This document shows, in pieces, positions 1 through 57,100 of a stretch of DNA of 64,000 nucleotides. The notes beneath the pieces are model-generated. The model made no database searches. It was not told where the DNA came from and saw nothing but the letters and a program-made list of their open reading frames with translations. Source of the stretch: Lytechinus pictus (Eukaryota). Numbering within the stretch: position 1 is the stretch's first letter; each line of letters starts with the position of its first letter. The stretch covers positions 48,176,001-48,240,000 of the forward strand of contig NC_087251.1 of the NCBI RefSeq assembly GCF_037042905.1. The letters are read 5' to 3'. The position numbers were made by a program, and so were the translations under genes.

Positions 1-519
1 CATTTCTTTCTCTTTTTCCCTTCTTCTTCTTCTCTTCCTCCTTCTACTCCATCTTCACCTGATTTTCTCCGAGTGTGTATCGTTTAGCTCATCTCCAGAG
101 TTAATAGCAAAATGGTATGAACCTGACTAAATATACTTCGAATTGTCAGCCTTCAATTTGGGAGATTATCTGATATTCTGCTCATGATTTCAGGAGATAT
201 CTAGTATATTTGTCAGCAAAGAGATTTGCCAGCAGAGAGATCTTTTTTATCTGTTTTAATGGCCAAATCGATCTCAACGACAATAGAGACAAATCGAAGA
301 CATAGCATAACGCTTAACACTAAAAAAAAAATCGGATATGAGATAATTTTCCTTTTAGCAAATCATTCTCGGAAAATTCAGATCTGACAAGTTGTCAGAT
401 GATGCAATAAAAGTCTCCCCTGGCCTGCGCATGTATGCAAAGGAGGAAGCCGATGACGTAGGCATATAGTATGTCGTGTTGCATCTATTACGTAAAACAT
501 TTCAGATTTTATAGCCTTG

Positions 520-3500
520 TAGTAGAGCGGATTAGCTCCAAAAATCACAACAATTGTGCAAATTTTGACTAAAGCATGAAACTTTCACAAGTATTAGTAT
601 ATGCCATAAGATTTATTTTAAAGATGGGAGGTAAATTTATAAATGCCATTTTCGGCCGTTGCCATGGCAACGGATTAATTTCTCCAAAACAACATACATT
701 CCCATATAAATGGTATATAAACATGATATAGATGACCAAAATGATAATTTTCAGGCTCCCAATTGAATACATATGAAATTTAGAAATATTCAAGATCATC
801 AAGATAGTTCCAATTGGTCCGTTGCCATGGCAACGGCTTGTTTTTCCCCAGAAAAATAAACATTTTGATTAAAAAAAGTTGTAGAATATGATATATCTTT
901 AATTTCCCCTAATTTTACAGTGCTTAACAAAGATATTTTGGTTGCTAAATGTGTAAATTACATCTCAAGCCATTGCCATGGCAACCAAATAACATCTAAT
1001 TTACAAAAATAACATGGTTGTCAAGACAATGGATAGGTGGAAAATACAATTGGAATTGACTTAATCTGTATGCTTAAGTTTTGACCCCCTCATTTGAACA
1101 AAAAATACAAAATTGTTCTGCAGGAGTTCTTTATAAAGATAAAATATTATGTTGCTTTGGAAATGCTTGAATTGAGTTTAAAAAGGAACAATTTTACAAA
1201 GGGCCCGTTGCCATGGCAACAGCTTATTTCCCTCTAGAAAGGTAAAAATATTGATAAAAATGTAGAATACATGTACGGTATGATCATCATTCCATTTTCC
1301 CCAATTTCAAGGTACTAATCGAGATATGTTTGTGACTAAATTTATAAATATAACATCTTAAGCCATTGCCATGGCAACCAAATAACATCTAATTTTTTAA
1401 AAAAGTGGATGATAAGGTTAAAAACAGGTGAAAGATACAATGAATATTAACTTAATGTGCATTCGTAAGGTCTGACCTACTCAACTAATTTAGGGGAAAA
1501 TAATACAGTCAGTGTTCTGCTTGAACTAATTTAAATAATAAACATTGATGTTGCCTTGGTAATACTTGAATTCAACGATAAATATCAATGTTCCAAATGG
1601 CCTGTTGCCATAGCAACGGATCATTTACCCAAGAACAGTAGCAGTTTTGAATTTTTAAAAGGACTGTATAATCTGATTTTTCTTTCATTTCCCTTAACTT
1701 TAGGGTAAGAATAGATATGTTTGCTGTTAACATGCAAATAACATATAAATCCATTGTCATGGCAACCAAGTAACATCTAATTTGAAAAAAAAATTAACAT
1801 GGTTGACATGATAATGGACAGGTGGAAACTGCAATTTATAACAATTAACTCAAGGTTTGACCCAGTCATTTAATTTTGAACAAAGATTACAATGTTTCGC
1901 ATTAGTTCATTAGAATGATGAAATTTGAGGTTGCCTTGGTAATGCATGAAGTTAATGATAAATATCAATGTTGCAAATGGGCCGTTGCCATGGCAACAAC
2001 TTTTTTTTTCCAAGAAAAGCACCAAATTTGATCGAAAAACAGTTTAAAATCTGCATTTTGTCATAAATTTCCCCTAATTTTAGGATGCAAAGCATAGATA
2101 TGTTTGCTGTTGATGTACAAATAACTTCAGCCATTGCCATGACAACCAAATAACATCTAATTTCAGTGGCTTAATTTGGTTTCTATGTTTTAAGGGTGAA
2201 GTAGTACATTAGGACTAGTTACAAGGACAGCCAGTGGTCTGACGTGTCCAAAACCCTAAGACGGCTTCCAAAAATGGAGTTTGAAATGGCTGTTGATATA
2301 TAAATGGACATATAGGTCATTTCCTATCAATCTGAGATATATGATTTTGGTGTCTAGACCATGGTTTCAATGGTCAAATAATACACTATCACAAGTTGAA
2401 TGGACAGTCAGTTGTCCATTATATAAAAAAATCCAAGATGGCTTCCAAAAATGGAGTCTAAAATTGCTGTTGCTGCATTAAAAAAGTAGTTTGTTTGATA
2501 TCCTGGAATATGTTTATGTCATGGTTAAATGGGTCAAATAATACATTAGGACAAGTAACAAGGACAGTCAGTGGTCAAGTTTGTCCAAAAATCCAAGGTG
2601 GCTTCCAAAAATGGAATAGCTCCTGTTACTAACAAATTGACATATTTCGTGTAATATATGTCAGTAAATACATCATGTACATTTGAACAAGTTACAAGGA
2701 CAGTCCGTAATCTAGTGTGTCTAAACATCCAAGATGGCTTCCGACAATTGGAGTCTAATCGGAGTCTGTTACTTAAAAGTTGACATAGTTCATTTAAAAT
2801 CCACCAATAATTTTTTTTTTTTGGTGTTCACACTTTGGTTTCAAGGTTTTAAAAATATGTTTAGACTGGTTACAATGATATCCAGTTGTCCATTTTTTCC
2901 TAAAAATCCAAGAGGATTTTCAAAATGGCATCTAAAATGACTTATATCACTCAGAAATTATCTGAGTTCATACAACATCAACATGTGAGAAACATTTTTG
3001 GTGTCTACACTGTGGTATGAAGGGTCCACTATTACATTAGGACAAGTAACAAGGATGGTTAGTTATCAATTTTGTCCAAAATCCAAGGTAGATTCTAAAA
3101 TTACATCAATGGGTGCTGTTGCCAACTCTTACCTGCTTGCATTTTGAATGTAGGCACCAACATTATTTCTCACAAGTGGATATTACATCCACTTCAAAGT
3201 AACAGTTGTCATTTTAGAACCCATTTATGGAAGCCATCTTGGATTTTCAGGCAAAATTGACAATTGTAACCAGTCCCAAAGTATAATTTGATCCTTGAAA
3301 CCCTAGTGTAGACACCAAAATAATATCACCAGGTGTATTTTTGATGTACTATGTCCATTTTTTAGTAACATTATAACCCCCATTTTTCAAGCCATCTTTG
3401 AATTTTTTGACACAATAATGACACCTGACTGTCCTTTCAACTTGACCAAATGTACAGTATTACTTGACTCTTTAAATACTAGTGTAGACATCAAAATCAT

Positions 3501-6500
3501 ATCCCCATATTATATTATTAATGAACTATATTATGTCCATATTGAAGTACCAACAGTCAATTTAGACCCCATTTTGGAGGCCATCTTGGATTTGTTAACA
3601 TACCAGTCCACTGACTGTCCTCGTAACTTATTCTAATGCATTAAACCATGGTTTTATGATTATGGTTTAGACATCAAAATCATATTCCCCAGACAGATAT
3701 TGAACAAACTATGTCCTAATTTATTATTTGACTCTTGAAAATATGGTTTAGACACCAGAATCACATCTCACAGGCGGATATAGAATAAGCTCTGCCAATT
3801 TTTAAGTAACAACAGTCAATTTTAGACCCCATTTTGTAAGCCATCTTGCGTTTTTTAACATACCAAACCACCGACTGTCCTTGTAACTTGTCCTAATGCA
3901 TTACTTGACCCTTTAAAATATGGTTTAGACACCAAAATCATATTCCCCAGACAGATATTGAACAAACTATGTCCTAATTTATTATTTGACTCTTGAAAAT
4001 ATGGTTTAGACACCAGAATCACATCTCACAGGCGGATATAGAATAAGCTCTGCCAATTTTTAAGTAACAACAGTCAATTTTAGACCCCATTTTGTAAGCC
4101 ATCTTGCGTTTTTTAACATACCAAACCACCGACTGTCCTTGTAACTTGTCCTAATGCATTACTTGACCCTTTAAAATATGGTTTAGACACCAAAATCATA
4201 TTCCCCAGACAGATATTGAACAAACTATGTTTATTTGTAAGCAACATTAGACATTGTTTTATATTTTTTTTGGAAGCCATCTTGGAATTTTGGACATACA
4301 AGACCACTGACTGTCCGTGTAGCTTGTCCTTATGTATTATTCGCCTTTGAAATCATAGTTTAGACACCAAAATCATATCTCACAGGTGAATATAAAATGA
4401 GCTATTCCACTTTTAAGTATCAGCAGCCATTTTATAATTATTTTCGGAAGCCATATTGGATTTTCGGACATACTTGACTGTCGTTGTAACTTGTCCTAAT
4501 ATTATTAGACTCTTGAAACCAATGATTTAAAGTCAAAATCACTTCCCCTAGGCCAATATGAAATGAGCTACGTCCGCTTTAGGTATCAGCAACCATTTTA
4601 GATTTAATTGTTTGAAGCCAACTTATGTTTTTGGACATTCCAGACCACTGGCTGTCCCTGTAACTTGGCCCTATGTACTATTGATCCTTAATAACCAATG
4701 AATAAAAAACAAATTAAAGCCATTTTATCAAGTAATGGATGAGTTGTGGATTTTTAGCCTACGGCAGCCAGTGAGGGCACCATCTTGGATTTTCCTGTTA
4801 CCCTGGAGTACTTAATTTTTCTTTTCAACCTTTCAACCAGTAAGGGTATTTTTAAAAATTTAAATATTTTAATAAGTCTACTTATCATGTAAAATTAGCA
4901 GTGAATAGATTATACTTCATGTTGATTAGATTCATAATTATGTTAATTCAAAAATTATCACAGTATTTCAAAATCTTCTTCGTCAAAATCTGTGATGTAT
5001 TTTGAGGGGTCCAGATATGATGTATTGAGTAAAATTAATTTTTAAAAGTTGTCAGCTAGCCCAGCGAAAGAGTAAAACTTTCGAAATTTTTCATTTTTTT
5101 TACAAAAATAAAATTTTGTAAAAGATTTTGGGTATAGTATTCGTAAAATAATCATATTTTATCCATCTCTCTTTCAGGTTCTCTTTATTTTTTTCTTGGT
5201 AATGATTTTTTTGGGGGGGAGTAGGGTTGCAGAATTTCCGGGAATTTTCTTGATGGAATCTTTTCATGGGAATAAACGGGAATTTGGTGGGAATTTTTGG
5301 AATTTTCGGCAATTTTCAAGAAATGATGGGAATTTTCAAAAAGTAACAATTTTCTGATATATGCAGAAATTAAAATGCGTACTAGCAGATGATACTTGAT
5401 AATTCTTTGTCATCAAATTTCGAGCCAAGTATTATGCTAAAACAGTCAGACAAAGCAAAATTTTAATGATTTCCATGTAAAAGTTGATTTACTGTATTTA
5501 CATTGATTAGGAGCTCAAGACCATGTCAACTCCTCAGATAGACTTTTGATTTTGATTTATCAACGCCTATTATCCCCTTATATATTGATATGATGAACGG
5601 CCTTAAAGCACAAATCACACCAAGACGCTTTCTTCAAAATGGCAGCCTGCGAATACTTTGAACGAAATTGACCAGCCTCGAAATTAGAGTTTCGGGAATT
5701 TATTTGAGCCCAAAAAAGTCTGATAAGATTTTTGTAGGTCTTATTTCGATGCCATGTATAACGAAATAAGATGGTGCTTATCATTTAGCATATTTATGTT
5801 CAGCACCCTCAAATAAGGGACAAGGAAATAAAATAAACATATTATTTTTATCAAAATTTGTACTTTTAAGGGACCATTGGCAACATTGATATTTATCATT
5901 ATGTTCAAGCATTACCAAATCAACATATCGTAAGAAATCATGCATAACACTTAATGTGATTTTAAAATTAAAATAGTAGGTCAAACCTTACGCATATTAA
6001 GTTAATTTTATTGTATTTTCCACCTGTCCATTATCTTGTCAGCCATGTTATTTTTTGGTAAATTAAATGTTATTTTATTGCCATGGTAATGCCTTAAGAT
6101 GTTATTTATACATTAAACAACAGAGATGTACGTGTATGTTTGGCACCCTAAATTTAGTAGAATTGAATGAAAAATAAGATTCTACAAGGTATTTTTTATC
6201 AAAGATGGTATTTTAGGGGGAATAAAATGACCCGTTGCCATGGGAACAGAACACACATTTGTAAACATTGATATCAATAAATTCAAGCATTACCAAGGCA
6301 ACATCAGTTTTTATCATGCTAATGAACTCATGCGGAACACTTACTGTATTTTTTGTTCAAAACTTAATGACTGGTCAAAGTCAAACCTTATGTAGATTAA
6401 GTAAATCTTTACTTTACATTCCACCTGTCCATTATCATTACAACTGTGTTAGTTTGTTTTAAATATTATATCTTAATTGGTTGCCATGACAATGGCTGAA

Positions 6501-8101
6501 GATGTTATTTATTTATTAACAGCAAGCATATATATGCTTAGCTCCCTAAAATTGGGGCAAATGAAATAAAAATCAGATTTTACAATTTTTTTGTTTATCA
6601 AACATGATACTTTTCTGGGGGGAATGAGCTGTTGCCATGGCAACGGGACTTTTGAAACACTAATATTTATCATTAAATTCAAGTATTACCAAGGCAACAT
6701 AATTTTATTATTCTGATGAACTCATACAGAACTCTTACTGAAATTTTTGTTCGAAATCAAATAACCGGCCAAACCTTTCGTATATTGAGTTATTTGTATT
6801 TGTATTTTCCACCTGTCCAAAATCTTGTCATCCAAATCATTATTTTTTAGTATTAGATATTATCTGGTTGCCATGGCAATAGCTTCAGATGTTATTTATA
6901 CATTTTGCATCAAACATATCGATGTTTAGCACACAAAGATTAGGGGAAATGCAAGAAAAATCAGATTCTACAGTCCCTTTTTTAATCAAATACTGATACT
7001 AAATGATCTGTTGCTATGGCAACAGGCCATTTTGAATATTGATATTTATTGTTGAATTCAAGTATTACCAAGGCAACATCAATGTTTATCATTCTAATTT
7101 AGTTCATGCAGAACACTGACTGTATTATTTTCCCCTAAATCAATTGAGTAGGTCAGACCTTACGAATGCACATTAAGTTAATATTCATTGTATCTTTCAC
7201 CTGTTTTTAACCTTATCATCCACTTTTTTAAAAAAATTGATGTTATTTGGTTGCCATGGCAATGGCTTAAGATGTTATATTTATAAAATTTAGTCACAAA
7301 CATATCTCGATTAGTACCTTGAAATTAGGGAAAATGGAATGATGATCTTACTGTACATGTATTTTACATTTTTATCAATATTTTTACCTTTCTAGAGGGA
7401 AATAAGATGTTGCCATGGCAACGGGTCCTTTGCAAAATTGTTTATTTTTAAATTTAATTCAAGCTTTACCAAGGCAACATTAATTTTCATCTTTATAAAG
7501 AACTCCTGCAGAACACTTCCTGTATTTTTTGTTCAAATGAGGGGGTCAAATCTTAAGCATACAGATTAAGTTAATTCCACTTGTATTTTCCACCTGTCCA
7601 TTGTCTTGTCAAACATGTTATTTTTGTAAATTAGATGTTATTTGGTTGCCATGGCAATGGCTTGAGATGTAATTTACACATTTAGCAACCAAAATATCTT
7701 CGATAAGCACTGTAAAGTTAGGGGAAATTAAAGATAAATCATATTCTACAACGTTTTCTTAATCAAAATTTTTACTTTTTGGGGGAAAAACAAGCCGTTG
7801 CCATGGCAACGGACCAATTGGAACTATCTTGATGATCTTGAATATTTCTAAATTTCATATGCATTCAATTGGGAGCCTGAAAATTATCATTTTGGTCATC
7901 TATATCATGTTTATTTACCATTTACATGGGAATGCATGTTATTTTGGAGAAATTAGTCCGTTGCCATGGCAACGGCCGAAAATGGCATTTATAAATTTAC
8001 CTCCCATCTTTAAAATAAATCTTACGGCATATACTAATACTTGTGAAAGTTTCATGCTTTAGTCAAAATTTGCACAATTGTTCGGCTAATCCGCTCTACT
8101 A
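520..8101. mobile_element. 7.6-kb non-autonomous foldback DNA transposon, Academ-like
   Basis: Ends TAGTAGAGCGGATTAGC (520) and GCTAATCCGCTCTACTA (8101), with TTG on both flanks (517-519, 8102-8104). Highly similar inverted arms of about 1.15 kb (520-~1690 vs ~6940-8101) are extended by diverged ~390-bp units. No transposase ORF. Confidence 0.85.
3661..4230. repeat. Near-perfect 258-bp tandem duplication inside the foldback element
   Basis: tatggtttagaca(t/c)caaaatcatattcccc recurs at 3661, 3919 and 4177. Confidence 0.9.
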
Positions 8102-8995
8102 TTGGTAATTAAGAAGATTACGAATCCTAACAAGGATATTAAATATCGTATTGCCAAGAAAAATAATAAACTTACAAGCCATTTTCGGAAATGGAGATTT
8201 AAGTTGTAAGATATTCTATCATCAATTTTTGTTACTGAAGAAAATCTTAATATGCCTTCTGAGGATGGAATTTTGTTAATCTTCAATAATAGGTGAATCA
8301 CCTGATTTTTATCCCTCTGTTATTACATTCTTGCCTTTACTATACTATAGGCCTATAGGGGATGAGGAATACTTAGAAGAGACAAAGTGACTGCTTTTAC
8401 TACATGTTTATCAAGTATTATCTGTTGATAAGCTGTACTTTTTCTAATGTAAACTAAAAATGTGTATGCTGCTTTTTTTCTTTTTTTTATTTATTTATTC
8501 TGTTATATTTTAAATTACTTGTATTAATTATACGTGATTTGTTATACAAAATTATGAAAACCCAATAAAAACTTTAAAAAAAAGAAGATTACGAATAAAA
8601 ATAAACCTAACAATGATGAGGTATCATCAGGAATCGAACACGGTTTTATATCGTTGAAGGAAAATAAGATATTTCAAATAATAATACATATCATAACGAT
8701 AACAAGATAGTGAATGCATTACCCATAAGACCCCATTCTGGTAGTCTAAAACCTCATCCCGTCACACCAAGAAAACTGACTCCAAACTGACCAACGATAT
8801 ATGGTTATGGTAATGAGGTATATTTTGTTCGGGCTGGAGTCGGTTTTGCCGGGGTAACTGTGGCACTAGTCAAACGATTTGGGTTGTTTCATCTCGTCTA
8901 TAGATTTGGTGATTTTCAAACTTGTGATAAAACCAAAGGATGAATAACAGTCCTTGTGCATAGTCAATATCAAATTTCATACTTTTTGGTAAAAC

Positions 8996-9396
8996 TTACG
9001 ACTACTACTACTACGACTACTACTACTACCACTACTACCACTACTACCACTAGCGTAATCTACGGGGGGGGGGGGGGGGGGGCAGAGGGGGCAGTCTGCC
9101 CCCCCCCCCCTGACGAGCCACAACCCATGCAAAGGACGTATCCCTGCCCCCCCCCCCCCTGACGAGCTTGAAGACCTTTATTGCCCTCCTGACGAGCTTT
9201 TTTTTTTTTTTTTTTGCTTGTCAAATTTTTTTTCTGGTACCAAATCCTTCATTTATGATTGAAGACCCTTTTTTTTTTTTTGGCTTGTCACATTTTTTGG
9301 CGGACGGTTTTGCCCCCCTGTGAAAAATCCCAGGTACGCCACTGACTACTACTACTACTACTACTACTACTGCTACTATTACTACTACTACTAGGC

Positions 9397-9457
<61 letters not shown>

Positions 9458-9462
9458 CACTA

Positions 9463-9516
<54 letters not shown>

Positions 9517-9639
9517 TTACTACTACTACTACTACTACTACTATTACTACCACTACTACTACTTCTACTACTACTACTACTACTACAACAACAACTACTA
9601 CTACTACTACTACTGCTGCTACTACTATAACTACTACTT

Positions 9640-9684
<45 letters not shown>

Positions 9685-9685
9685 T

Positions 9686-9751
<66 letters not shown>

Positions 9752-9812
9752 CACTACTACTACTACTACTAATACTACTACTACTACTTCTACTACTACT
9801 TCTACCACTACA

Positions 9813-9843
<31 letters not shown>

Positions 9844-9891
9844 TAACTACTACTTCTACTATTACTACTACTACTACTACTACTACCACTC

Positions 9892-9958
<67 letters not shown>

Positions 9959-10098
9959 CACTATTACTACTACTACTACTACTACTACTACCACTACTAC
10001 TACTACCACTACTACTACTACAACTACTACTACTACAACAACAACAACTACTACTACTACTACTACTTCTACTGCTGCTGCTGCTGTATACTACTATA

Positions 10099-10138
<40 letters not shown>

Positions 10139-10140
10139 TT
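8996..10140. repeat. (ACT)n microsatellite, about 1.1 kb, interrupted by a MITE
   Basis: Directly visible; source of the poly-V/T/S pseudo-ORFs. Confidence 0.98.
9048..9344. mobile_element. hAT-like MITE with G/C homopolymer runs inside (ACT)n
   Basis: Termini CACTAGCGTA..TACGCCACTG; both flanks read ACTACTAC. Confidence 0.7.
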
Positions 10141-13100
10141 TCTTCTACTAATACTTCTGCCACCACTGCTGGCATTGCTGCTGCTTTTATTACAATCATG
10201 GCTACTAATTAAGCTGCTGTTCCTTTTCCATATATTCATTATATTTCTCTTCCTTCTTCCTCTTATTCTGCGAAGCAATCAGTCAATAAAAAGAGCGAAC
10301 GACATTTAATCATCGGAAAGATTTTTATTTCGGCAGTGTGAAACGTTGGACAAAGCTGACGTGCGAAAATTAGAAAATCGGAAAGGATGAAATTAATATC
10401 AGACAAATAATATCCGATCATCCCTTTCTGCGCGCTTTCTTCCAAAATAGGACCGTGATGGCAATATTGACATCAGTAACCGAAGACATTGCCAAATTTG
10501 TTTCATGCACACGAGCTGCAATGGTATCAAAAGGTGATATATGATGAGTGTGTATTTGTGCACCTTTCAGATCATTGACGATGCGAAAAGTATTCAAAAT
10601 CTCTGAGCGCTATAAATGTCATGCAATTCCTTGCTCCGGTGTTCATGTCGGCAATCGGATGCCAAGATTTCAATCTTTATGAAATAAAAAAGAAGAGAAA
10701 AGTAAGAAACAACGACATTGTAAATAAAAAGAAATATTCCACTTTTTCACTACTTCAATAACTTGTCCACTCTCTCTTCCTCTCGTTCTTTAAAATCGCC
10801 AAAAAAACAATTAATGAAATGAATATTCGTGTACCTGAAATTCCCTGAAAAAAATTAAGGAAAAAAAAAAAAAAAGGTTTCACTATCAAAGGTTTGCTAA
10901 TTGTTACAAATTTCAAATATAACGAACAACCCCGTTGCCCCATTTATCATGTCTATGGATTCGTAATAATGCTGACCGCTACCCACCTATCACTATTGTA
11001 AATAAAGGATTTTCTTTGACGTAACCATGAAGCCCTTATCTCACGAATTGCAACCTTTCATTTTCGCGATGTCCGTGGGAGGGGAAGGGCGCCACCAATA
11101 TGACGGTCAAATATATCAATTTCAACAAAAGCAACAGTAGTTTTGCGTACGGAGTGAGACAGTGTACATAAATGATTCTTGATATTGAATACATCTTATC
11201 TGTGGATGTTGTTTATTTATGACAAAGGGTTGAAAGAAGCGTTAAAATGATCTATCCAAGTATTTGATCGCCTATTCGAAGGTTGTCAAATAAAATTGTC
11301 ATTTTATAATGCTTCCTTCGACCTCTTTTAATGCAATATGAAACAGAGAGAAATTGCAAATAATCACTGATAATGAAATACGTCAGCAGGAGAGGATTAT
11401 GTCTGTTTTTCTTTGTAAAAAAATACAAGCGATGGAACATCAATGTTTTCAATCTTGCTATTACTTTCATTTCCAGAGGAAATCAACCATGAGTTGATTT
11501 CGTATCAAAATAGCTACTGATATCATATTTATTATTCTTATTTCATGAGATAGTACTGTGTAAACATAAATTGACGAACAACCGGGAAATTGATATTTAA
11601 GAACATTACACCGAAACAGAGATATACTTTAATGTTTAAATATCGAAAGATCCCCTAAGTAAAAAAAAATATATAATTTGAGTAAAATTGAATCATGATG
11701 ATCTCCAATATATGGTCTCTCGACCACAATGAGAAATGTGTCCTCACTGTCCGAATATTAGAAATCTAAAATTCACCTGGGGGCGTTTCATGAAAAGTTT
11801 TGTGATTGACCTTCAATGACTAATTTGCTCTAAAACAATCAGTTGCAAGGACTTGCAGTAGCTCAAAACAATATTAAATGGAAATCAGTGAAAACTGATT
11901 CCATGAAATGCTCCCCTTGTGACACTACTAGAAATCGATAAGTTACCATCTACTTTAGATTAAAAAAGAAATTAAAACTGAGGGGGAATGTAGGAACTGA
12001 AATTATGGTAAAATAGGCTTTTCCGTCCAAAATGATTATAATTTTGTTTTGACCTGATATATATAAACATAATACCAGGGGCGGCATCACTTTTTTTTTT
12101 TGGGGGGGTGCAATATGACATATCGAACGTCACATTTTTTTCTCAATTTGATTATTGGATATTATAGAGTAAATACGGCCTAGAAATCTTAATGTTATGC
12201 TCTTTTATAGTTGCGTAATGAGCCCAAAATTTTGAGGGGCCAGATATTGCGTATTGGGCGAAATCAATAGTTTATAGTCATATTTAAATTTAGACATTTT
12301 TATTACAAAATCAAATTTTGTGATAGATTTTGACATAAGATTCAGAAAATAGTATTATATTTTACCCTTTTCTCTCTCTCTCTCTCTTGGGGAAGGGGCA
12401 AGCACCTCCAATCTGTTAGTACGCCACTGATCTTTTTCATTCTTTCTCCCTCTTTTTCTTTTTTCACTACTAAAAAAATCATAAGGGGTGGTCGCCTCCT
12501 GCTCTCACCTGGGGCACTACCCCTGAATAATATAGGTTAAGACGCTTAAGGTTCCTGGGATAATACTTGGTAACTTGTAGACAGTCGGTGCAATATGGTT
12601 CCATGTAATGTGGTATTATAAGTGTTGGTAGGGGATATTGAATAAAGAAAATGTATTGATTAACTAGAACTTTTACTGTTTGTTCAAATGTGCCAAAATA
12701 ATTTAGCTCAAATTTCAATACCTATGGTCATGGATTGTAGAATATAAGTAAGGATTAATGCAGTTTTATAGTAATCTGCGAAGTGCAATAATTTAATACC
12801 GGCCAACCACTTCATTATCAAATTAATTTCTCTAATCATGAAAGTACAAACAAAAAATTGTGAAAGGGGTTCAGTACACTGGTGTGCAGATGGGGGGGGG
12901 GGGGGTCATGGACTCTAAAGAATTAAAGACCAAGAATAAAAGGATAAAAGGGAAGGAAATGGGGGTGAAATATGATATAATTCTTAGAAGATTATGTAAC
13001 AATCTAAAAAGGGCGAAATTGTTCGCTCGGCCGCAGCCTTTAAGAATTTATGCCCCATACGCCATATCTGGCCCCTCAACATTTTGGGCTCATTATGCTG

Positions 13101-27000: not shown

Positions 27001-30000
27001 GAAATGAGCAACATGAGCATGGAATTAGCATGTAGACAACATCGGCAATAAAGCCAACACTACCCTTGCCCTCTTGAGGATCAACTCTATCCAACTCAAG
27101 ACAATAGCTTACTTTTCCCTCGTGAGACCACTTGTGGAATATACAGCACCAATCTGGGATCCATACACCGAGAGAAACATCTATAAGCTTGAGATGATCC
27201 AGAGAAGTGAGCTCTGCAAGATTCACCCTCAACAGACATCACAATACATCCAGTGAAACTGAAATGTTGAGGGAGCTGACTTGGCACTCACTACAGCAAA
27301 GGCGAGAAGTCCTCCGTCTGGTTCACTTCGTCAAAATGCACCACAACATTGTTGATTTCACCACTGCACCTTACATCACGCCTGTCCGGAGAGCAACAAG
27401 GCATGTCCATGCCCAAGGCTATCAGCTGCCTCTCTCTAGAACTGAACAGCACAGACAGTCATTCTTTCCGCGCACTATGAAGACATGGAATACCCTACCA
27501 CCTGACGTAATTTCCGCCCCATCAGTCGAGTCCTTCCGGCAGAGATTGATGGTGATGCAGGCAGCCTAAAATGCCAGCCATTGTTTTACTTGCACCTGTG
27601 ATTTTATTTTTGTTCAAATGCACCATCAAGCACACGCACCAGACACACAAATCGCCTGTATTATGAAGGACACAGGTCTACCCTGAAGAAGGAATTCCAT
27701 CAAATGTCAGGTATTTTTCGGAGCAATATTAATACACTATCCAACATGTGCTTTCCTGTGTTAGTGATTATCACCAGTCCAGAATTATCGGTTTTCAGCT
27801 AAAACTTCAAGATTTCACAAAGATAAGACATATGTTTATTTCAATGTACCAGATCTATAACATTGTGGCAATTAACCTTCTGTATCGTTCAGACAGCAAA
27901 ATACCAGGATTGGCACATCACGCTAGCTACCTCAAGTGTAGACCAAAAGCTTCGGTCTCTGTTATGTTGGTTGTTCAGCTGAACTCCGTTGGCTTCACTC
28001 ACCAAATACAGAGACCGAAGTTCTAGCGCGATCTGTACAGGGGACACAATGGCCATATGTTTATGTAGTAAATGTACTAAGTTCGGATAAAACAGGGAGG
28101 TGAAGTTGCGCGACAGCCGAGGTCAGTCACTGATTTTTTTCCTTTTAACTTGATTTTTCCCCGTTTTTTGGCAATTAAAGGCAAGAGGGAATATTAATTC
28201 GTATTTCGGTCGCATTAAATTTCAAAAGTTTTATTCATTAAAGACAAAAATTGAAGAGCCCCGACGGGGGGATTTAGCATTGAAAGTCCCCTAATGGTGG
28301 CTGCACGATAGCGAGCCGTCTGTGTACGAGGAGAAATTGAAAAAAATTGAAATAATTAATAAAAAAAACTCCTCGAAACAGACGGCTGCCAGCTGTCTAC
28401 CTCAAGTGATGTTCGTGCAGGCTCCACATCACTACCGCTACACTATGCTCCACCTACCTGAACATCAAGGTACAAAACCCGCTCGAATACTCCGAGTGGC
28501 AAAGGTGGGAAAAAATGCATAATTATTGTAAAAATTATACGTCGAAACAGCATCAAAAAGCTTACCGTAAACTGGGGTGACTTTGGACACAACAGAGAGA
28601 GGTGTTGTTTTGTTAAATAGTAATGTTGGTGATAATTACACTGTTAAAAAAAACCAAATTTTAAAGAAAACAAGTGGAACGCCTCTGGCAGTCTCGCCTG
28701 CATTACGCGATTTAATATAGCAGCAGTGCTAACTTTGAAAACTACAATAAAATAATCATTCACAAAAACACCATTCATATAATGACATAATACCACGTTC
28801 ATTGACCATAAATGACATTTGAACGGTGACTTAAGACTTGTCAACTACACCCATGTCCACATTTCATTCACTCTATCCATAAACTTTCAAAGTTATGATG
28901 GCAATTCAACAATTACCCCAACATGGCCTAAGTTTATTGACCTTAACTGACCTTTGACCTTGGTTTTGTGACCTGAAACTCACAGGGGATGTTCAGTGAT
29001 ACTTGATTACTCTTATATCCCAAGTTTTATGAACTAGATCTATAAACTTTCAGAGTTAGGATGGTAATTTAACAAATACCCCCAACACGGCCAAAGTTCA
29101 TTGACCTTTAATGACCTTTGACCATGGTCATGTGACCTGAAACTCGTACAGGATGTTCAGTGATTTTTGATTACTCTTATGTCCAAGTTTTATGAACTAG
29201 ATCCATAAAATTTCAGAGTTAGGATGGTAATTTAACAAATACCCCCAACACGGCCAAAGTTCATTGACCTTAAATGACCATTGACCATGGTCATGTGACC
29301 TGAAACTCGCACAGGATATTCAGTGGTACTTGATTAACCTAATGTCCAAGTTTCATGAACTAGATCCATAAATTTTCAAAGTTATGATGGTAATTCAACA
29401 AATACCCCCAACTTGGCCAAAGTTCATTGACCCTAAATGACCTTTGACCTTGGTCATGTGACCTGAAACTCAGGCAGGATGTTCACTCATACTTGATTAA
29501 CCTTATGTCCAAGTTTCATGAACTAGATCCATAAATTTTCAAAGTTATGATAGTAATTCAACAAATACCCCCAACTTGACCAAAGTTCATTGACCCTAAA
29601 TGACCTTATGATGTCATTTCAAAAACTTAACCTTCGGTTAAGATTTTGAAAATAATTCTCCCAACATGGTCTAAGTTCATTGACCCTAAATGACCTTTGA
29701 CCTTGGTCATGTGACCTGAAACTCAGGTAGGATGTTCAGTAATACTTGATTATCCTTATGGCCAAGTTTCATGAACTAAGTCCATATACTTTTCTAAGTT
29801 ATGATGTCATTTCAAAAACTTAACCTTAGGTTAAGATTTGATGTTGACGCCACCGCCGCCGCCGTCGGAAAAGCGGCGCCTATATGCAGGCGAGACAAAA
29901 AGGAGATTTTGCAGAAAGCAATAACAGAATCATTCTGTAAATTAAAAAAAAACAGGAATTTTTCTTCAATTTAACAAAACAGGTCTGTTAAAAAAGGGGA

Positions 30001-33000
30001 AAAGGGTCTTTTATTCAATGAAATCTGTAAGATTCCATGCACCAAATACCAATTTCCTGTAAGATTACGCAATCTGGTAAGATTACAGGTGTTCTCGAGA
30101 CTCTGCTGCAGGAACTTCTTTTATTAAAGGATAAATTTTCTAACAGTGTACATTTATATAGCGCTTCATATGTTGGTTTCTAAGCGCTATATAAATGTAA
30201 TTATATCCCTTACTTAAGATTGTTGTATTGAGAGTGTACACAAGGAGAAAAGGAATAGTTTTACTACGAAAAACGTTTGCCATGAATTAGTTCATTTTCC
30301 TTGATGACGTCACGCATAGTCCATTTTTTCCCTAGGGAAAAAGTGAACTATACATTTTTTGACCCCCCCCTACCTCGCGATTTGCGAGCTGTGCGGCGCG
30401 ATGCGAGCAGAGCGCTGCTCAGCAAAATGGTACTCTCCACTGCATGCCATGCGAAACTTTCGGCGAGCTGCACTAACCAGGTGCGCTCGCCGAACTGACA
30501 ATCCATACGGCAAGACTTATTATTTTCTCAACTTCTCAACGATTGTTCTATATTGACTTATTAAAAATCGGTTCGCTGTAAAATGGTATGAGTGGAAGGG
30601 ATATATAAAACAAATATACAATGACCCATTCTCGGAACAGGCTAAAACTATTCGCACTGAGGAACATCACATAGTACTATTCTCCCGAGGGCCATCGGCC
30701 CGAGGGAGAATAATACTATGTGATGTTCCTTCGATGCGAATAGTTTTAGCCAGATCCTCGAGTGTCATTGTATATTTGTATACTATCACCCCCATTACTA
30801 TATTAAACGAAACAACACCCCTCTCAGTTGTGTCCAAAGTCACCCCAGTTTACGGTAATTTTTTACTTTACACCCTAATTTCCCTCCATTTCCATCCTCC
30901 AGTTAGCCTAAAAATTGGGAATTTAGAGCCAACATCGAGTTCCTCACACTTACGCTCACTCACGCTTATTTCAAAACATCGCATGCGCATGCGTGAGGGT
31001 CTGAGCTCGGACCCTCGCACGTGCGATGTTTTGAAATCGGCAGCCAATTATTTATACACGCCGAACGTGTGAAGAACTCGATGTTGGCTCTAAATCATCA
31101 ATTTTGAGGCTAACCGGAGGATGGATATGGAGTGATATTAGGGTGTAAAGTAAGAAAATAAGCTTTATTCTTTTTTTAAGTCGTTTCGACGTATGATTTT
31201 TACAATATGCATTTTTTCCCACCTTTGCCACTCAGAGTATCCGAGCGAGTTTTGTACCTTGATATTCAGGTAGGTGGAGCATAGTGTAGCGGTAGTGAAG
31301 TGGAGCCTGCACGAACATCGCTTGAGGTGCAAGCTAACTTGATTTTAAAGACTTTCTCACAAAATAATCGTTTGTTGCAACTCTACTGTCGAGCTGTCTT
31401 GGCTTAACTTAAGTTTAAGTGCGCGTTCTCTTTCCGCACAAGTATGAAAATTTACTCTCCCTGCAATTCCAGACTACCCCCCCATGCCATAATTCATTAA
31501 TTGGCTTTGCCTTTGCTTTGTCAATCTTTCTAGTCTCGCAGTACTACCAGTACCAGTAGTATGGCAAGTTCCCCCAAGTCTGCGCAGTCCCCCTTGCATT
31601 GTCTGCTCACACAAGTATCTGCGCGATTCTCACTCACACGTATTGCGAGGTTAGTATTAGTATACTAACCTCACACCACGAACCGCGTTTGGCAGTGGAT
31701 TTCTAACTAGTGGGTCGCGCGTGCTGGGATCTCACTTCTTGGGTCCACAACACATGACTTCTATGGCTTGATTTTTCTGTGCGCGGCGGCATGTAATGAA
31801 CCCTTGGGTGCGCGATTCTAGTAAAAGAAGATATGCAACGAGCACAAACTTTACACATGCAACTGCAAGGCATAGACAGGTATTCATAAAAAAATCCAAC
31901 TCAAAATGGTGGAAAAATAATGAATTTAGGCCTTAGTTAGGGCATTTCATGTTACGACCTCAAAGTGCAGCCTTTCTCATCAAAATCCCTGAATCGTGTG
32001 CAAAGTGAATGAGTGCGCAGACACGGGGTACCATTTTTTTTTTCCAATCTGAAAATGACTGCCCAAGGTTTTTTCAAGAAAATCCTTAGTTTAATTTTCT
32101 TTCATTTTTTTAATGAGAAATTTGGTACACTTACTCTTGATAATATAAGGAACATTATTAAAGGAGAATGAAACCCTTGAAACCAGCTGAATCCATATCA
32201 AAGAGAAAAATCTAAGAAACATATTGTTGAAAGTTTGAGGAAGATTGAATGAATAATAAGAAAGTTATGAGCAATTGAATATTGAGATCACTAATGCCAT
32301 GTAGATCCTCCCATTGGCAATGCGACCAAGATCTGTGATGTCACACACGTACAACTCCCTCATTACTTTAGTACTTATTTCACTTATATTCTCATTTTTA
32401 TATATAGAGTCTATCACAAGGTGAGGTGTTCTCTTTATGAGAGGACAAGTACAGAGGTTTCACAACATTATCATTGATGAATCGTTTGTCACATCATTAG
32501 AATGAGCAAAAAGAGATGTTTTGGGGTATATTTTCAGTGTCCAAAAGGGGAGAGTTGTTCATCTGTGACATCATAGATCTTGATAGCATTGCCAATGGGA
32601 GGATCTCCATAGCATTAGTGATCTCGACATTCAAATGCTCATAACTCTTCTATTGCTAGTCCTATTTTACTCAAACTTTTGTTGATCTTATTCTTTGATT
32701 TTTCTGCTTTCACAAAAGCTAACTTGCTCCAAGAGTTTCATTCTCCTTTAACTGAAAGATTCTGTGAAATATGAAGAAATTCATGTTAAATCTTAACTTA
32801 AATTGTTAGGTGCGCAGACTTGGGGCCCACCATCATACCACAGCGGTGGCTTACTCACATACCCACCCGAACCTGCGGGTAGACCGCTCTCTCGTTTCCG
32901 AGCTCCGCTTCCGCACGAACGCACAGTCAGTATACGGTACCGGTACGGATACGGTACACACTCACGAAACGCGACATACCGTATGTTGCAAACAAATATG

Positions 33001-44714: not shown

Positions 44715-46326
44715 AAACAAAAATCCAGTTAAAACCAATTAGGGCAAAACCAATTGAAACCAGTTGGCCAACTGGTTTCAATAGGGAAATTGGAACAACT
44801 GGTTCCAATTGAAAACCAGTTGCCAATTGGTTCCAGTTAAAACCAATTGGTTCCAATTGAAAACCAGTTGCCAATTGGTTCCAGTTAAAACCAATTGGGC
44901 AACTGGAACCAGTTGGCAATTGGTGTCAATTGGTTCCAGTTGTTCCAATTTCCCTATTAAAACCAATTGAATCCAATTGGAGGCAACTGGTTTCAATTGG
45001 TTCCAGTTGAAACCAATTGGAGGCAACTGGTTTCAACTGCAACCAGTTGAAACCAATTGGTTTCCAACTGGATCCAATTGGAACTAATTGGAATGAACTT
45101 AATTAGTTACAAATTAATTAGCATTTGCACTAACTATTGCTCATATGCCAACACAGAAGCAGTATTATATGTCTATTAATACCAATGTAAAGGGCATTGA
45201 TTAAATACAGAATTTCATATGTATATATTGTATGGAAGATCTTCAAATACATGTATTTTTATTTGATGTAATTTGGTAACAGTTAGTGGTGTACTAATTA
45301 TCATTTAATCTGTTTTAATTATAATCTATAACATTTATGAACATGGTTTTCACTGCTAAGTATTCTAAATACTTATCTTTAAAAAGTGTGGCACTTGAAA
45401 TTGAAAAGAATTAAATAGATACATTGTTAATGATGATGAATCTCATAAAACATTAATCTGTGCACACTGGCAGATAATATGCAAATTAACTGGTTTCAAT
45501 TGGATCCAGTTGGGTAACTGGAAAATTTCCAATTGGAAACCAATTGGAAATCATTTCCAGTTACCCAACTGGTTCCAGTTTTATTTTCAGTTACCCAACT
45601 GGTTCCAATTAGAATTCATTTCCAGTTACCCATCTTTCCAGTTAGAAGTCATCTCCAGTTACCCAATTGGTACCAGTTAGGATTTCCAGTTACACAACTG
45701 CATGGTTCAAGTTAGGATTTCCAGTTACCCAACTGGTTCCAGTTAGAAATCATTTCCAGTTGGAAGTCATTTCCAGTTACCCAACTGGTTCCAGTTTGCA
45801 GTTGCCCAACTGGTTTCAGTTGGGATTTCCAGTTACTCAACTGGTTCCAGTTAGGATTTCCAGTTGCCCAACTGGTTTCAGTTGGGATTTCCAGTTACTC
45901 AACTGGTTCCAGTTAGAAATCATTTCCAGTTACCCAACTGGTTCCAGTTAGGATTTCCAGTTACCCAACTGGTTCCAGTTAGAAATCATTTCCAGTTGGA
46001 AGTCATTTCCAGTTACCCAACTGGTGCAGTTAGGATTTCCAGTTGCCCAACTGGTTCCAGTTAGGATTTCCAGTTGCCCAACTGGTTCCAGTTGGGATTT
46101 CCAGTTACTCAACTGGTTCCAGTTAGAAATCATTTCCAATTGGAAGTCATTTCCAGTTACCCAACTGGTTCCAGTTAGGATTTCCAGTTGCCCAACTGGT
46201 TTCAATTGGTTTCAACTGGAAATTGTTAAATTCCAGTTAAAACCAATTGAAACCAGTTAAAACCAATTGAAACCAATTGAAACCAGTTGGAAATCCAACT
46301 GGTTTCAATTGGATTTTGGTCCTGGG
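44715..46326. repeat. Foldback-like satellite of short palindromic units (AACCAGTT/AACTGGTT/CCAATTGG) around a 400-bp AT-rich spacer
   Basis: Arrays at 44715-45090 and 45488-46320. Ends caaaaatccagttaaaacc and ggtttcaattggattttgg are mirrored; the right end is CTGGG. Confidence 0.85.
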
Positions 46327-51119: not shown

Positions 51120-54100
51120 GTGAGAATCTGCAGTGCTAAGTCTTGGTTTTTTTTTAAAGCATTCCCCCCCCCCCAAAATATGAGTGTGTGTGTTTAAATA
51201 AAATTTGGAAATTAGAGAGTGAGAGTGTAATGGGAATTAGAGAGAGAGACAGAGGAAAGAGGAGGAGAGAAAATGAGGGGTCGAGAGAGAGAAAGAGATA
51301 CTTGAAAGGGGGGGGGGGGATAAAAAGAAGGGCTATAAAAAATGAAATTGTCTTAAATATTCACATGTTTTATTATCAATTCTTACATCACATCCAATCT
51401 AAGTGATAGGCTATGCCTATGGTGAATTTGGAAAATGATCTTGCTTTCAACATTTTGATAACATTACCATCAGACCATAACAAATCATTAAAACATGATC
51501 GCATAAACATTTCTTCTCATTGGCCCTTATTCTGAACCCGGGTTTATCAACTCATATGACACCATGACCAAATTGTTTGTAATTGTCTGGGAATGATAAC
51601 AACTGTTTTTCTTCATTATGTCAGCAAAAAGGAAACAAAATAGTAAACATAAGAGATATGCAATATTTGGCTCCCCATAATTTTAGCACCGTTAGACCGT
51701 AGTCTAACTCTGAGTTAAACCTGACCTCAGAATACCGGCCAATGGCTCTTCAATTGAAAGAGCAAAACTTAGGATGTGAGGATTTTATCATGATAGATAT
51801 GTTACCCTTTACAGCTGTTATTGAGCCAGCATCAACAAACGATAGACGCTCCTCGGGAACCAAACCCATTGGCATTGTAGACGAGAGATGGGAGCTTATT
51901 GACCCGAACCCAGATGTGAGAGCCCTCTTCCTTCAGTTCAATGATCAGTTTTTCTGGGGTCGGCTGGCTGGTGTAGAGGTCAGATGGAGTCCTAGGATGA
52001 CATTGTGAGTTACTCTTCCAGCGCCCGAATGACTGTGAGGTTCACCCTGAAGAAAACTTTGTCGTAAAAAATACCAGAAATAATAATGACAGATATTGGT
52101 GAAGGTTTGAAGAAAATAAATGAGATATTAAAAAAATTATTAGAATTTTTGATTTGTAATGTCATATACAAGCAGCTGCCCCATATATTATGTAATATAT
52201 AATGCATAAATTCAACCTTTTGATGGTTCATGATGAGTAAAAGGGTCTTTCTCTCAGCTATGGGTGTGAAATATTTTTTCTGTTGATATACTGAAGGTAC
52301 AATAAACCCATTTTCAATTTTTTGAGAAAATTACATTTTATCGATTGTAGTACTACTTCACAATATATGGTGAAGCTGCTTGCATATGACGTCAAAAATA
52401 AATAATTTAAAATTCAAATAATTTTTTTAAACCAACTGATTTTCCCCAAACATTCAAAAATATTTTTAATTGTTTTTTCTGCTATTATGCAATAAACTTT
52501 TTTCTTGGTGAACTTCCCCTTTTAATTAATCCAATGCAATCAAAGGCCATGGCTGTGTATGCTCTGTTGACTGTTCTTGGTGCCCCTGTAATTGGCCTTC
52601 AATACTTTTATGCCTTTTTTTTCTCCAATTTGTGCTGTAGTGTAAAAATTTCCCCTCTGGAAAAGAGGCGTTGCACCATTGTATTAAAAATTAAGGCCTG
52701 CTCTTCCAATAACGCTTAAAACCAGCCTTTCTCAGCTGGATATATTTCACCAAAAGTTGTGAAATGGCCCATGGGGGCGTTTTAATAGATCTTAGAGTCA
52801 AGTGCATTTTCTTTTTCTTTAATATTAATGATAATAATAATCCACTTTTATATAGCGCTTGATACATCAGAACAACGTGTCTAAGCACTTTAGAGATATA
52901 ATATTACCCCAGTCATCGGATTCAACCAGTCATTAGTCTTTAAATAACTCTTACTTGATTGAATGCACTTCTTCGATTATGTACCTGAATTACAAAACAT
53001 TGGCTGTTGCCATATAAATAAGTTACAAGGCAGTAGCCAACAAATCAAAATACTGTTTTAAAGAATATAGATTGTTCAAGATTATGTTTCTCTATCGTTT
53101 ACCACAGATGTGCTGGAGTTTGCTGTTATGAAGGATATGGTGGTCTGTGTTCTGTTCGTCTCAGCCTGCCTTTGCTGAAACTCAGACCAAGAAAAGATCT
53201 TGTTGAAACTCTGCTGGTAAGATGATGTTAAAAAAAAAAAATTGCTATTTAGTATACAGTACCATTAAAACAAATAATACTTCTTGATGAACAATTGCCA
53301 AATAATCTTTCACAGTAGACTAGACATTCCACTTTAAAAATATTGTGTACATAAATGCAATCTTTCTTAAAAAAATATGAGGGTATTCTGCAGTGAAGCC
53401 TACATGAATTTGGTACAGATCATCAGCATTAAAAAAATACAGTGAAACTGCTTCTTATCTCTTACAATCTTACATATTTTACTGAGTTACCCCAATGTAT
53501 TTTCAACCATATTGTTTACAAGGCTTTAGTTCCAATGAACCCATCTTATGGTTTTTAGCAGACCAAATATCAAATATATAGATTATTTTATGATATTAGT
53601 TACATTTATATAACGCTTCATACTTTGGTTTCTAAGTGCTTTACATTGTAATGATTATTACCCCGGTCATAGGATCCATCACTGTGCCACACATAAAGAG
53701 CACCATCTCCACTCCCTGGGGAGTATCCTGGCCAGGCAACTGTTTATGGGTGCACACATGCCAATCTAATTACATTGACTCTCACATCCTACTGGGTACC
53801 CATTTAACACCCGGGTGGAGAGTGACAAATTTGTGGTTTATTAGAGATCCTCATCATGTGTTATTCTTCTAGATATTTCAGATGTGTTTGCATTTTCCTT
53901 ATGCTATTAAAGGGGAATCCAACCCAAATAAAAACTTGTTTTTATAAGGAAAAGAAAAATCAGACAAGTTGATAGGTGAAAGTTTGAACAATATTGGACA
54001 AAGAACAAGAAAGTTATGAATTTTTAAAAGTTGTAAATATTGGTAATCACTATACCCATGGAGACTTCAAATTGGCCGCATATGGGATGTCATAGTGATG

Positions 54101-57100
54101 TAAGGCAAGGACTACTCTTCCATGTACTCCAATACATATTATGGCTAAAATATCATTTTTCCCAAAAGTTTTATTTCAAATTATATTTTTCTTTTATGAG
54201 GACATAAAACGATATACTACCTGGGTTATAATTTAGATTACTGCCCCAGGGGAATTGGTACTTAGGAGAAAACCACAAATCCCTGATAATAAAGTACATG
54301 GCCTATGGGAAAGTTGTCCTTGCCCTTTGTCATAATTTACTTACCCAGTTGCCAATTTGAAATCTACATAGTATTAGTGATCTCAATTTTAAAGCAGCTA
54401 TAACTTTTATATTGCTTGTTCGATTTCTTTCAAACTTTCGCCATTCTGTTTAATTTATTTTTCTCCTTCCCAACTCAACATTTCATGGGCAAGGCTGGAT
54501 TCCCCTTTAAGGTTTAATTGTTTGTTTAATGTTATAAGATATAAAGAAAATCACTGCATAAGATTTAATTAACATATTTTGAGCCTTTATAGTAAACCCA
54601 ATGAACATCAATTTCAATTTCTTTCCCTAGCATGAAATGATCCATGCCTATCTGTTTGTTACACAGAACAACAAGGTGAGTGAAAAAAAAAATTACGTAC
54701 TAAGACCCAGTACTTTCTTAAACTAGTTTAGTAGAAACCAGTATAACTTGTAATGGGAACGCTCGAAGCCATCTTAAGTAGTCTTCCAAATCAGTTTGGA
54801 ATACCACCTAAAGATGTGGTTTTCAAGACAGCTTTGACTCTTTAAACTTCGCACTGAATTAAGAGAGTGTGTGCATGTATGGCCCGCTACTCAGTACACA
54901 CTGTATGTAGAATGCATACGCTGCGGTTTCAAATTTCATGTGTAACATGTGACCCTGCTGAGAGCATTCCCAAGACCACTTTATGTGAAGTGGTTTTCAA
55001 ACCTGGGGGTGTTTCACAAAGATTTAAGTATGACTTAAAGTCTGAAGTGTATCTGAAGTGCAACGCACAGTCTAATTGATCAATACGCAGTAGTGCGTGT
55101 CCTCTTTGCCTGATCTGACGAATGCGGTTATGCCTTTTATACAGCACGCAATTAGACACTTAAGTCATACTTTAATAAATCTTTGTGAAACAACCCCCAG
55201 TTCAGGAGATTGAGATGAGAATGCTAGCAAAGTGATCCTCTAAACTGTTTTTGAAAACTAGTTCAAGGGAAACCAGTTCAAGAAATTAGACGAGAATGGG
55301 TCTACGACTCTAAGCTATGTTGACCATAAATGAATTCATGTTTTTGGAATGAATAAAGGACAGATAATTTTGACCATAATTGTGTTTGTAATGATGATGG
55401 AAAATCTAATGAAAATGTTGGTAGTTTGGCGTGATGATTATGATGAATGTGATGAAACAGTAGTGGTGTCAATGTTGGTGATGAAGATGGAGTAAGTTTA
55501 TATGGTGATGATGTTGATGGCAGTGATGATACAGGTAATAATTTTGGTGATGAGAATGCTCAAAGAGAGATGACGATAATGTTGATGGAGCAATCAATAT
55601 CAAGGACAACTTCGTGTTGGGTGAATTTTTTTTCGTTTGTTTACAGTATATTACTATAACAACACAAATCCATTGGAAATTAACAATGAATTTGTGTCTC
55701 CTTTCCTCCTTAGGACCATGATGGTCACGGGCCTGAATTCTGCAAGCACATGAATAGAATCAATGCAGCTACTGGTACCCATATAAGTGTGAGTAGACCT
55801 CTTTTATAACAGATCACAAATTGTATCTGATTTTAAGTTTGAGAGGTAATTTATGGGGAAAAAAGAATGTTCCAAGATGATATCCAGCTAGGAAAATACA
55901 TGAGAATGACAGGCGATTTTGCCCTCATCACTCCTAGAATTCCCTAAATGGAGTGCTTGGGGTGATGACCTTTTCCAGAGTCGACTTATGATCTGCCACA
56001 AAAAAAAAATAGACAATCAATTTTCTTCATATGGCAGAATGATGATATTTGCATTAACCATATATTTACTTCTTATGCAAACAAACTAGCCATTCAAATG
56101 AATGAAGTAGCGCTCAAATTCAGCAATAGCTCCTATATGGAAATGATAGCCCCTTAAAAACTAAAGATTATTTCATATGTTTATAATATCCAAAATAATT
56201 TTTAAGAAACAGAGACGATGCTTATCATTACGAAAATGGATGTACATGTTTGCAAAATCATGTCGGAGAACTGCGGTTTAAAATTAGATAGTTGTTTGAA
56301 CTTTGGTGACACCTTCCTACAGATCTACCACACTTTCCACGATGAGGTGGATTCCTATCGCCAACACTGGTGGCGCTGCGACGGTCCTTGCCGGCAACGG
56401 AAACCTTACTTTGGCTATGTTAAGCGATCGATGAACAGGGCGCCCTCTCCGAGGGACACTTGGTGGGGTGAACACCAGCGCTCCTGTGGGGGAACTTTCA
56501 CCAAGGTCAAGGAACCTGAGGGGTATGGGCAGAAGAAAGGGGGAAAGAAGGATCACGGAGAGAGCAGTGAGGTGACCACTAATAAAGGTATGATGATCAA
56601 AGGAAAGTTCGGTTTCAGGGAAAGTTCCGATTCATGTATGTCATAGGATCCTTGCATTTTTGTCTCACTTACATATATTCGCAGAAGCAAGAAATATGTG
56701 CTGCTTTTACAGGTATTTTTTTTTTCAATTCTTATTTTCTCCATAATCACGAAACATATAAAGAACAAATACAAGTGTTAGGATGAGGAAAGTCACGTTG
56801 ATGCTGGGAAAAGAAAGAAAGTAACTATAACCCAAAGTTCTTCTGTTCAATTCAGTGTGACTTCACGTTATGGTAAAACACAATTGCAATATTTAACAAT
56901 CGTAGAAGAATTTAAATTAACATAGTTGTACAATTATGTACAATTCCTTACATGGAGTTACTTTTTAGATGTTGCATTCCAATGTGTAGTATGAAAAATG
57001 AAATGAAAAACCCTAATACTACTTGTACTTTAATAACAGCATATGGAAACATTTACGCAAGATTACAGCACTAGCTTCTTTGAAGTTGCACTAGTAATAC

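Follow-up and report, generated by a model that had tools for sequence, protein, structure and literature searches.

In a window of 64,000 nucleotides from Lytechinus pictus (NCBI RefSeq assembly GCF_037042905.1, contig NC_087251.1, forward-strand positions 48,176,001 to 48,240,000; coordinates below count from the first base of the window), we found a non-coding DNA transposon of 7,582 bp that spans positions 520-8101, starting with TAG and ending with CTA. Its long inverted arms are filled with copies of a 14-base palindrome that reads as the X-box, the word bound by RFX proteins, and this motif has been under constraint in the history of the element. We lean, by a small step, towards the interpretation that the arms of what appears to be an Academ transposon are arrays of predicted host RFX sites, kept for the element's own benefit. 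The original prediction for this DNA had placed about 20 such palindromes in foldback arms at 640..7990; the element extends beyond these limits.

The palindrome is confined to the element. All eight exact copies listed by the original prediction (658, 821, 1207, 1984, 6631, 7409, 7797 and 7960) lie where it had put them, and 11 of its 12 variant copies carry one or two mismatches; the twelfth, at 6077, carries three. When the whole window was searched for matches with at most two mismatches, 19 were returned, all within 658-7973, against 0.20 on average, and never more than 2, in 100 shuffles. A third, weaker site per unit, of the GTTGCCTTGGTAAT type (site D), had been overlooked: it shows three mismatches at 1550, 1930, 6289, 6685, 7064 and 7465, and four at 1151. 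The proposed ~390-bp repeat unit is real, since full units measure 363-399 bp. They share 63-79% mutual identity, with two mirror pairs at 93 and 96%, and three sites recur in each unit: A, which is near-perfect; B, which is asymmetric and lies 143-159 bp inward of A; and the weaker D, some 54 bp ahead of the A that follows. The proposed identity of the word also holds, as it fits both the classic palindromic X-box, a word bound by RFX (PMC3414849), and the 16-base RFX4 motif CGTTGCCATGGCAACG, which adds C and G flanks to the X-box (PMC5449588), as far as the available portions of these two papers go. C or G flanks 76% of the half-sites in the window, in arms of about 31% GC, and 76-94% of those in three metagenome repeat groups described below. 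Judged by word and flanks together, the sites of the window read as putative RFX X-boxes.

Constraint on the palindrome was measured on seven units, after exclusion of two mirror copies and of the innermost unit, which is decayed. Sites A and B differ from the unit consensus at 8 of 196 positions (4.1%), against 398 of 2273 (17.5%) in the spacer (Fisher p 5.5e-8), which bears out the earlier impression that the spacer is more diverged than the palindrome. None of 20,000 base-matched draws equalled this conservation, and among all 14-column windows in the ~390-bp unit the motif ranks first. In agreement with these data, the outer arms differ from each other at 0 of 84 motif positions and at 51 of 1010 spacer positions (p 0.028). 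Because the units are 25-30% apart and the outer arms about 5%, most of the constraint predates the insertion of this copy. On the other hand, none of 39 listed variant positions in the reads falls in a motif (p about 0.045; some of the other letters are those of the right arm), and for this single copy the absence of motif differences, between arms and among reads, is compatible with later constraint too. Moreover, the right arm's innermost unit, which is unpaired, has decayed motifs: half of site A is gone, and site B is degraded. This supports the interpretation that the sites serve the element.

These figures might also be explained without any protein, if repair or gene conversion kept the palindrome, either by self-correction of near-palindromes or by conversion from arm to arm. 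The arms share 90-98% mirror identity in the outer 1.2 kb and 77-83% further in, so that conversion or recent duplication does act on them. However, site B has the same asymmetric first base in all nine units, and non-palindromic blocks are conserved too. Self-correction would, moreover, yield any palindrome and not one identical word in unrelated elements. We regard this explanation as improbable.

The ends of the element point to its class. Our Academ reference was a curated bivalve library (PMC10294476, supplement file 24), in which the first ~400 bases of each entry are searchable; the available text of that paper counts 100 Academ among 762 curated families. The first 11 bases of the element, TAGTAGAGCGG, differ by one mismatch each from TAGTGGAGCGG, found in four bivalve Academ families, and TAGTAGAGCAG, found in one. 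A TAG start is seen in 12 of the first 13 Academ heads shown, and all 13 occurrences of the AAGCATGAAA box in the library are Academ heads with the box close to the start, as it is in the window (offsets 53 and 43). Repbase assigns non-autonomous elements by their 11 terminal bases, with at most one mismatch, and by the length of the target-site duplication (TSD) (PMC4455052), which is 3-4 bp for AcademX and 9-10 bp for AcademH (PMC10045372), according to the portions of these papers that were available. The terminal 11-mer, a 3-bp TSD and TAG...CTA termini with terminal inverted repeats agree with the AcademX type, and the element is thus very probably a non-autonomous, AcademX-like member of the Academ superfamily. 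The TTG duplication is known from a single site, and a 3-bp match could arise by chance. The left end is exactly 10 bp, or about one helical turn, longer than the right; the extra stretch follows the terminal 17-mer and precedes the AATTGTGCA/AAGCATGAAA block. In a contig of read run X8 a short-form end is joined to a different flank.

Other classes were considered and rejected. The 3-bp flank match does not fit the 9-10 bp TSD expected of AcademH. CACTA/CMC elements have CACTA/G termini and PIF/Harbinger elements a TWA target, both with a 3-bp TSD; the window element ends in TAG...CTA, and its target is TTG. HINE/Helentron elements were rejected for this locus because true terminal inverted repeats and a TSD are present. 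Pfam gave no match in the 10 frames scanned among 22 interior frames, and Rfam none within 300-8400. Supplement file 25 of PMC10294476 held no Academ entry and no X-box match, and a metagenome search with the element's own end pattern returned no locus. Thirteen viral matches to the terminal 16-mer were attributed to chance, as they are without X-box and show no further likeness.

The bivalve comparison also bears on what the palindrome may be for. By reading, all 13 bivalve Academ heads with AAGCATGAAA show a word, which we take to be of YY1 type, within the first ~170 bases. The first X-boxes of the window, at offsets 139 and 129, directly follow a GCCATTTT core, presumably also YY1-like, and occupy the place where the bivalve heads have the YY1-type word. 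This word is frequent in TAG-headed bivalve entries and occurs in a TcMar head as well (29 of 55 places shown). The exact X-box was found nowhere in the first ~400 bases of the bivalve entries, and none of the variants searched for occurs in a bivalve Academ head, three near or partial matches lying in PIF, Kolobok and TcMar heads. The subterminal position may therefore be an exchangeable slot for host factors, of YY1 type in bivalve Academs and of RFX type here.

The same palindrome recurs in elements of another kind. We scanned metagenome sequences for two X-boxes 149-179 bp apart, and at least 120 animal-type loci carry such pairs; UNC-5, TRIM, C2H2 and Sec10 domains mark them as animal (100 of 258 long frames scanned). 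Viral DNA yielded no locus with the paired pattern. The sole prokaryote match, L001 (10001-10169), was discarded as an assembly artefact, the stretch being duplicated across an N gap. Outside the motif, the likeness between the metagenome loci and the window element does not exceed that of shuffles (left-arm sites tested). Most of the X-box spacings listed are 140-170 bp, and by linkage the matches listed fall into three groups (55, 44 and 24 regions), with two singletons left over. In the largest group, both ends are visible in 15 of 54 listed loci, with subterminal repeats, a 3' hairpin and T-rich ends. A 5' subterminal inverted repeat (subTIR) has an inverted partner, a 3' subTIR is combined with the hairpin, and copies stand head to tail in locus L007. 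Subterminal repeats with a 3' hairpin are the anatomy of non-autonomous Helentrons in the available parts of PMC7492417 and PMC4067079, and by its features this group, to which the classification is confined, can be classed as HINE/Helentron type. Separately, X-box arrays occur as inverted blocks in loci L005, L039 and L058.

In the Helentron-type consensus all four X-boxes are exact, and 10 of 12 flank comparisons are only 55-66% identical. Sixteen copies show 19 motif differences in 50 site copies. Once the 30 exact sites required by the search are removed, this amounts, by a rough correction, to about 19/280 (6.8%) in the motif against 898/11,880 (7.6%) in the spacer. After insertion, the Helentron-type sites thus seem to decay like the spacer, apparently neutrally. 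Because they do so, selection would act on the replicating element and not on host loci. In addition, a rolling-circle element and an Academ share no transposase, which makes a host protein the simpler common cause.

The Academ and Helentron-type comparisons together weaken the alternative that the original prediction had offered, namely that the palindrome is a subterminal site of the family's own transposase, bound as a dimer on the dyad, with a coincidental match to RFX. Cut-and-paste elements usually have repeated, dyad-symmetric subterminal sites. A constraint that was in place before the insertion and weakens with distance from the ends would suit such a site, as would the ATGGC common to the X-box and the word repeated in bivalve Academ heads. 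However, no X-box occurs within the first 400 bases of Academs with the same end signature, the Helentron-type elements retain the identical word together with RFX-like flanks, and chance is unlikely to produce agreement with a known host motif over 14-16 bases. We consider a transposase site unlikely, although it is a rival to be reckoned with.

The Helentron-type copies also speak to whether the host retains the array, as a portable RFX enhancer that would bring nearby genes under cilia or sperm control, or as a sink titrating RFX. The density of sites is suggestive: about 4 kb of arm holds 19 strong sites, and the Drosophila X-box consensus is matched 10 times in the element against 4 times in the other 56 kb. 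The lack of motif differences between the outer arms and among read variants points in the same direction. Nevertheless, the constraint at the level of units is older than the insertion, Helentron-type copies lose their sites at the rate of the spacer, and the only host gene identified, SPRTN, lies more than 40 kb away, with no cilia gene identified in the 64-kb window. A module of Fox site and X-box was rejected as well, since RYAAAYA occurs beside site B at chance frequency (1.3 per shuffled unit). Retention by the host therefore appears to us a poor prospect, although incidental enhancer activity at some copies is likely as a by-product. In this sense, the earlier proposal of a mobile RFX-site cluster stands as regards mobility and motif constraint, but not as a portable host enhancer or factor sink.

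If the RFX sites are kept for the element itself, the following mechanism may be envisaged. A partner transposase, supplied in trans, would recognise the TAG...AAGCATGAAA ends (the terminal ~60 bp), and RFX dimers about 150 bp apart behind these ends would open or phase the chromatin there. RFX may also drive the transposase promoter in a coding parent. RFX acts in sperm and cilia, and the effect would be exerted in RFX-active cells, such as those of the male germ line, where lineages retaining X-boxes would get copied more often. We further propose, as a tentative and broader possibility, that unrelated classes of marine-invertebrate transposons (Academ and Helentron) each came on their own to carry optimal RFX sites throughout their arms or central repeats, spaced at about the length of a nucleosome. 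In that case RFX would be a host cofactor, so far unrecognised, for access to germ-line chromatin, and Academ ends might carry an exchangeable YY1-/RFX-type slot behind a conserved transposase signature.

Several observations weigh against an array kept as host RFX sites. Other blocks of the unit are almost as well kept as the motif, at 0.91, 0.87 and 0.86 against 0.95 and 0.905. Such blocks include a CAGGTG block, the AAATAACATC repeats surrounding site B and the tail of site D; hence the arm is not an RFX-only array. The core ATGGC that the X-box has in common with the YY1-type word could be read by a transposase. The absence of the X-box from bivalve Academs applies to the first ~400 bases of each consensus, and a coding partner was not found in the material examined. 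As the metagenome loci were found by the motif itself, their conservation figures are biased upward, and the post-insertion comparison of Helentron-type copies rests on about 20 sites. Finally, in 27 tandem arrays, with the two selected copies removed, unit-to-unit differences amount to 6.8% in the motif against 12.5% (three loci counted twice).

The element is mobile, as reads reveal other insertion sites. In all four runs of reads placed on 300-2300, depth is absent left of 501 and loose ends occur at 520. These ends continue into four different flank consensuses, none of which matches the flanks of this locus. In one raw RNA run (X23), 218 of 8.7 million reads map to both strands of the arm. 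Of these, 121 are less than 90% alike, and no start or end position is shared by many reads. Arm RNA thus looks like read-through of many copies rather than a discrete transcript. On 520-2300, A>G and T>C mismatches outnumber G>A and C>T by 107 to 31 in X23 and by 92 to 28 in X1 (RNA by guess), and the same classes are balanced in X5 (34 versus 32; kind unknown) and X8 (41 versus 41; DNA by guess, with another organism label). The excess is compatible with A-to-I editing, which may act on paired arms in foldback transcripts.

Table 1. Layout of the transposon and its target-site duplication. Positions are those of the 64-kb window.
Feature	Position	Strand	Basis
Left TSD copy, TTG	517..519	+	flank comparison
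Left ("long") Academ end: TAG terminus, terminal 17-mer, AATTGTGCA at offset 33, AAGCATGAAA box at offset 53	520..582	+	bivalve Academ head comparison; loose read ends at 520 (4/4 runs)
Left arm: terminal segment, first X-box 658, ~3.5 units of ~390 bp	520..2165	+	
YY1-like core GCCATTTT immediately ahead of first X-box, at bivalve Academ YY1-type offset	645..671	+	
Left-arm sites A	821, 1207, 1604, 1984		
Left-arm sites B	972, 1365, 1753, 2133		
Left-arm weak sites D	1151, 1550, 1930		
Inner foldback: ~140-180-bp units with CAAGATGGC word; centre ~3170; exact 258-bp duplication 3661-4176	2166..4723		
Non-coding core, ~1 kb	4724..5734		
Right arm: 5 units and decayed innermost sixth reaching ~5735; terminal X-box 7960	5735..8101	-	
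Right-arm sites A	7797, 7409, 7010, 6631, 6234		
Right-arm sites B	7645, 7250, 6867, 6480, 6077		
Right-arm weak sites D	7465, 7064, 6685, 6289		
Right ("short") Academ end: AATTGTGCA at offset 23, AAGCATGAAA at offset 43	8049..8101	-	
Right TSD copy, TTG	8102..8104	+	flank comparison

Between the two arms (Table 1), the inner foldback may be an ancestral type of arm or the remnant of a second Academ. Its unit resembles, by eye, the subterminal repeats of bivalve Academs, and read depth rises there. A clean nested insertion is not supported: the sequence after 4723 does not resume the outer unit, and the junction at 2165 is crossed by three contigs of run X5. The core stretch 5092-5175 recurs at 12295-12378 with 78% identity.

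Elsewhere in the window, exons of the SPRTN (Spartan protease) gene lie at 51703-58643 on the plus strand, with matches to the SprT-like domain (weak) and to the SPRTN zinc-binding domain. At ~28660-29890 there is a repeat of about six units of 163 bp, each with words of the TGACCTTTGACC type, which we take to be nuclear-receptor-like. Its ends are HINE-like by eye, and it lies within one arm of another inverted repeat (28399-28634 versus 30784-31328); it is thus another host-like word in a transposon repeat of ~160 bp. A complex array of short repeats based on CCAATTGG/CCAGTT, direct and inverted, occupies 44722-46316, and an ACT microsatellite of 271 units lies at 9345-10155, 1.2 kb from the right end of the element.

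If RFX is indeed bound for the sake of the element, a host factor could be named for the superfamily Academ, on which we know of no biochemistry. Such binding would also explain why repeats of ~150 bp in many invertebrate transposons keep particular words, and such elements would scatter clusters of the best site of a cilia and sperm regulator as raw material for new enhancers. If the word is a transposase site only, this is an ordinary foldback Academ. In the open literature we found no link between RFX X-box arrays and transposon arms, and subscription journals, Repbase entries or bioRxiv supplements may describe such families. Contexts of the exact 14-mer there are cilia genes or motif prediction, and a mention of RFX with transposable elements concerns RFX5 peaks on ERVK only.

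The closest known relatives are the bivalve Academ-1 elements (PMC10294476), which have in common with the window element the TAG terminus, the 11-mer within one mismatch (five families), AAGCATGAAA 43-53 bases in, the 3-bp TSD and a YY1-type word in inner repeats. The window element differs from them in that no coding region was found, in its arms of 1.6 and 2.4 kb built from ~390-bp units, and in the X-box that replaces the YY1-type word. Its long inverted arms of tandem units, homogenised outside and diverged inside, are like those of the Tetris foldback elements, as far as the available description of these goes. Drosophila FB, Galileo and sea urchin TU are foldback elements of like arm architecture, with other termini and longer TSDs; foldback is an architecture here and not a superfamily. 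HINE and other non-autonomous Helentrons with central tandem repeats, as presented in the accessible parts of PMC7492417 and PMC4067079, provide the anatomy of the largest metagenome group, which carries the X-box ~150 bp apart. The term "rfx" does not occur in those parts, and the window element is set apart from HINE by true terminal inverted repeats and a target duplication. Sites for host factors are also part of other selfish DNA. The YY1 site of L1 and the RFX1/EF-C site in the enhancers of hepatitis B virus and polyomavirus are single or few and lie in promoters or enhancers, whereas the window element has about 20 in the arms of a DNA transposon. Altogether, Academ elements as such are known, as are foldback arms, repeats of HINE type and transposons with host-factor sites; what appears to be new here is an Academ assignment by means of curated ends, a putative slot of YY1 or RFX type, and the recurrence of the same word in Helentron-type elements with apparently neutral decay.

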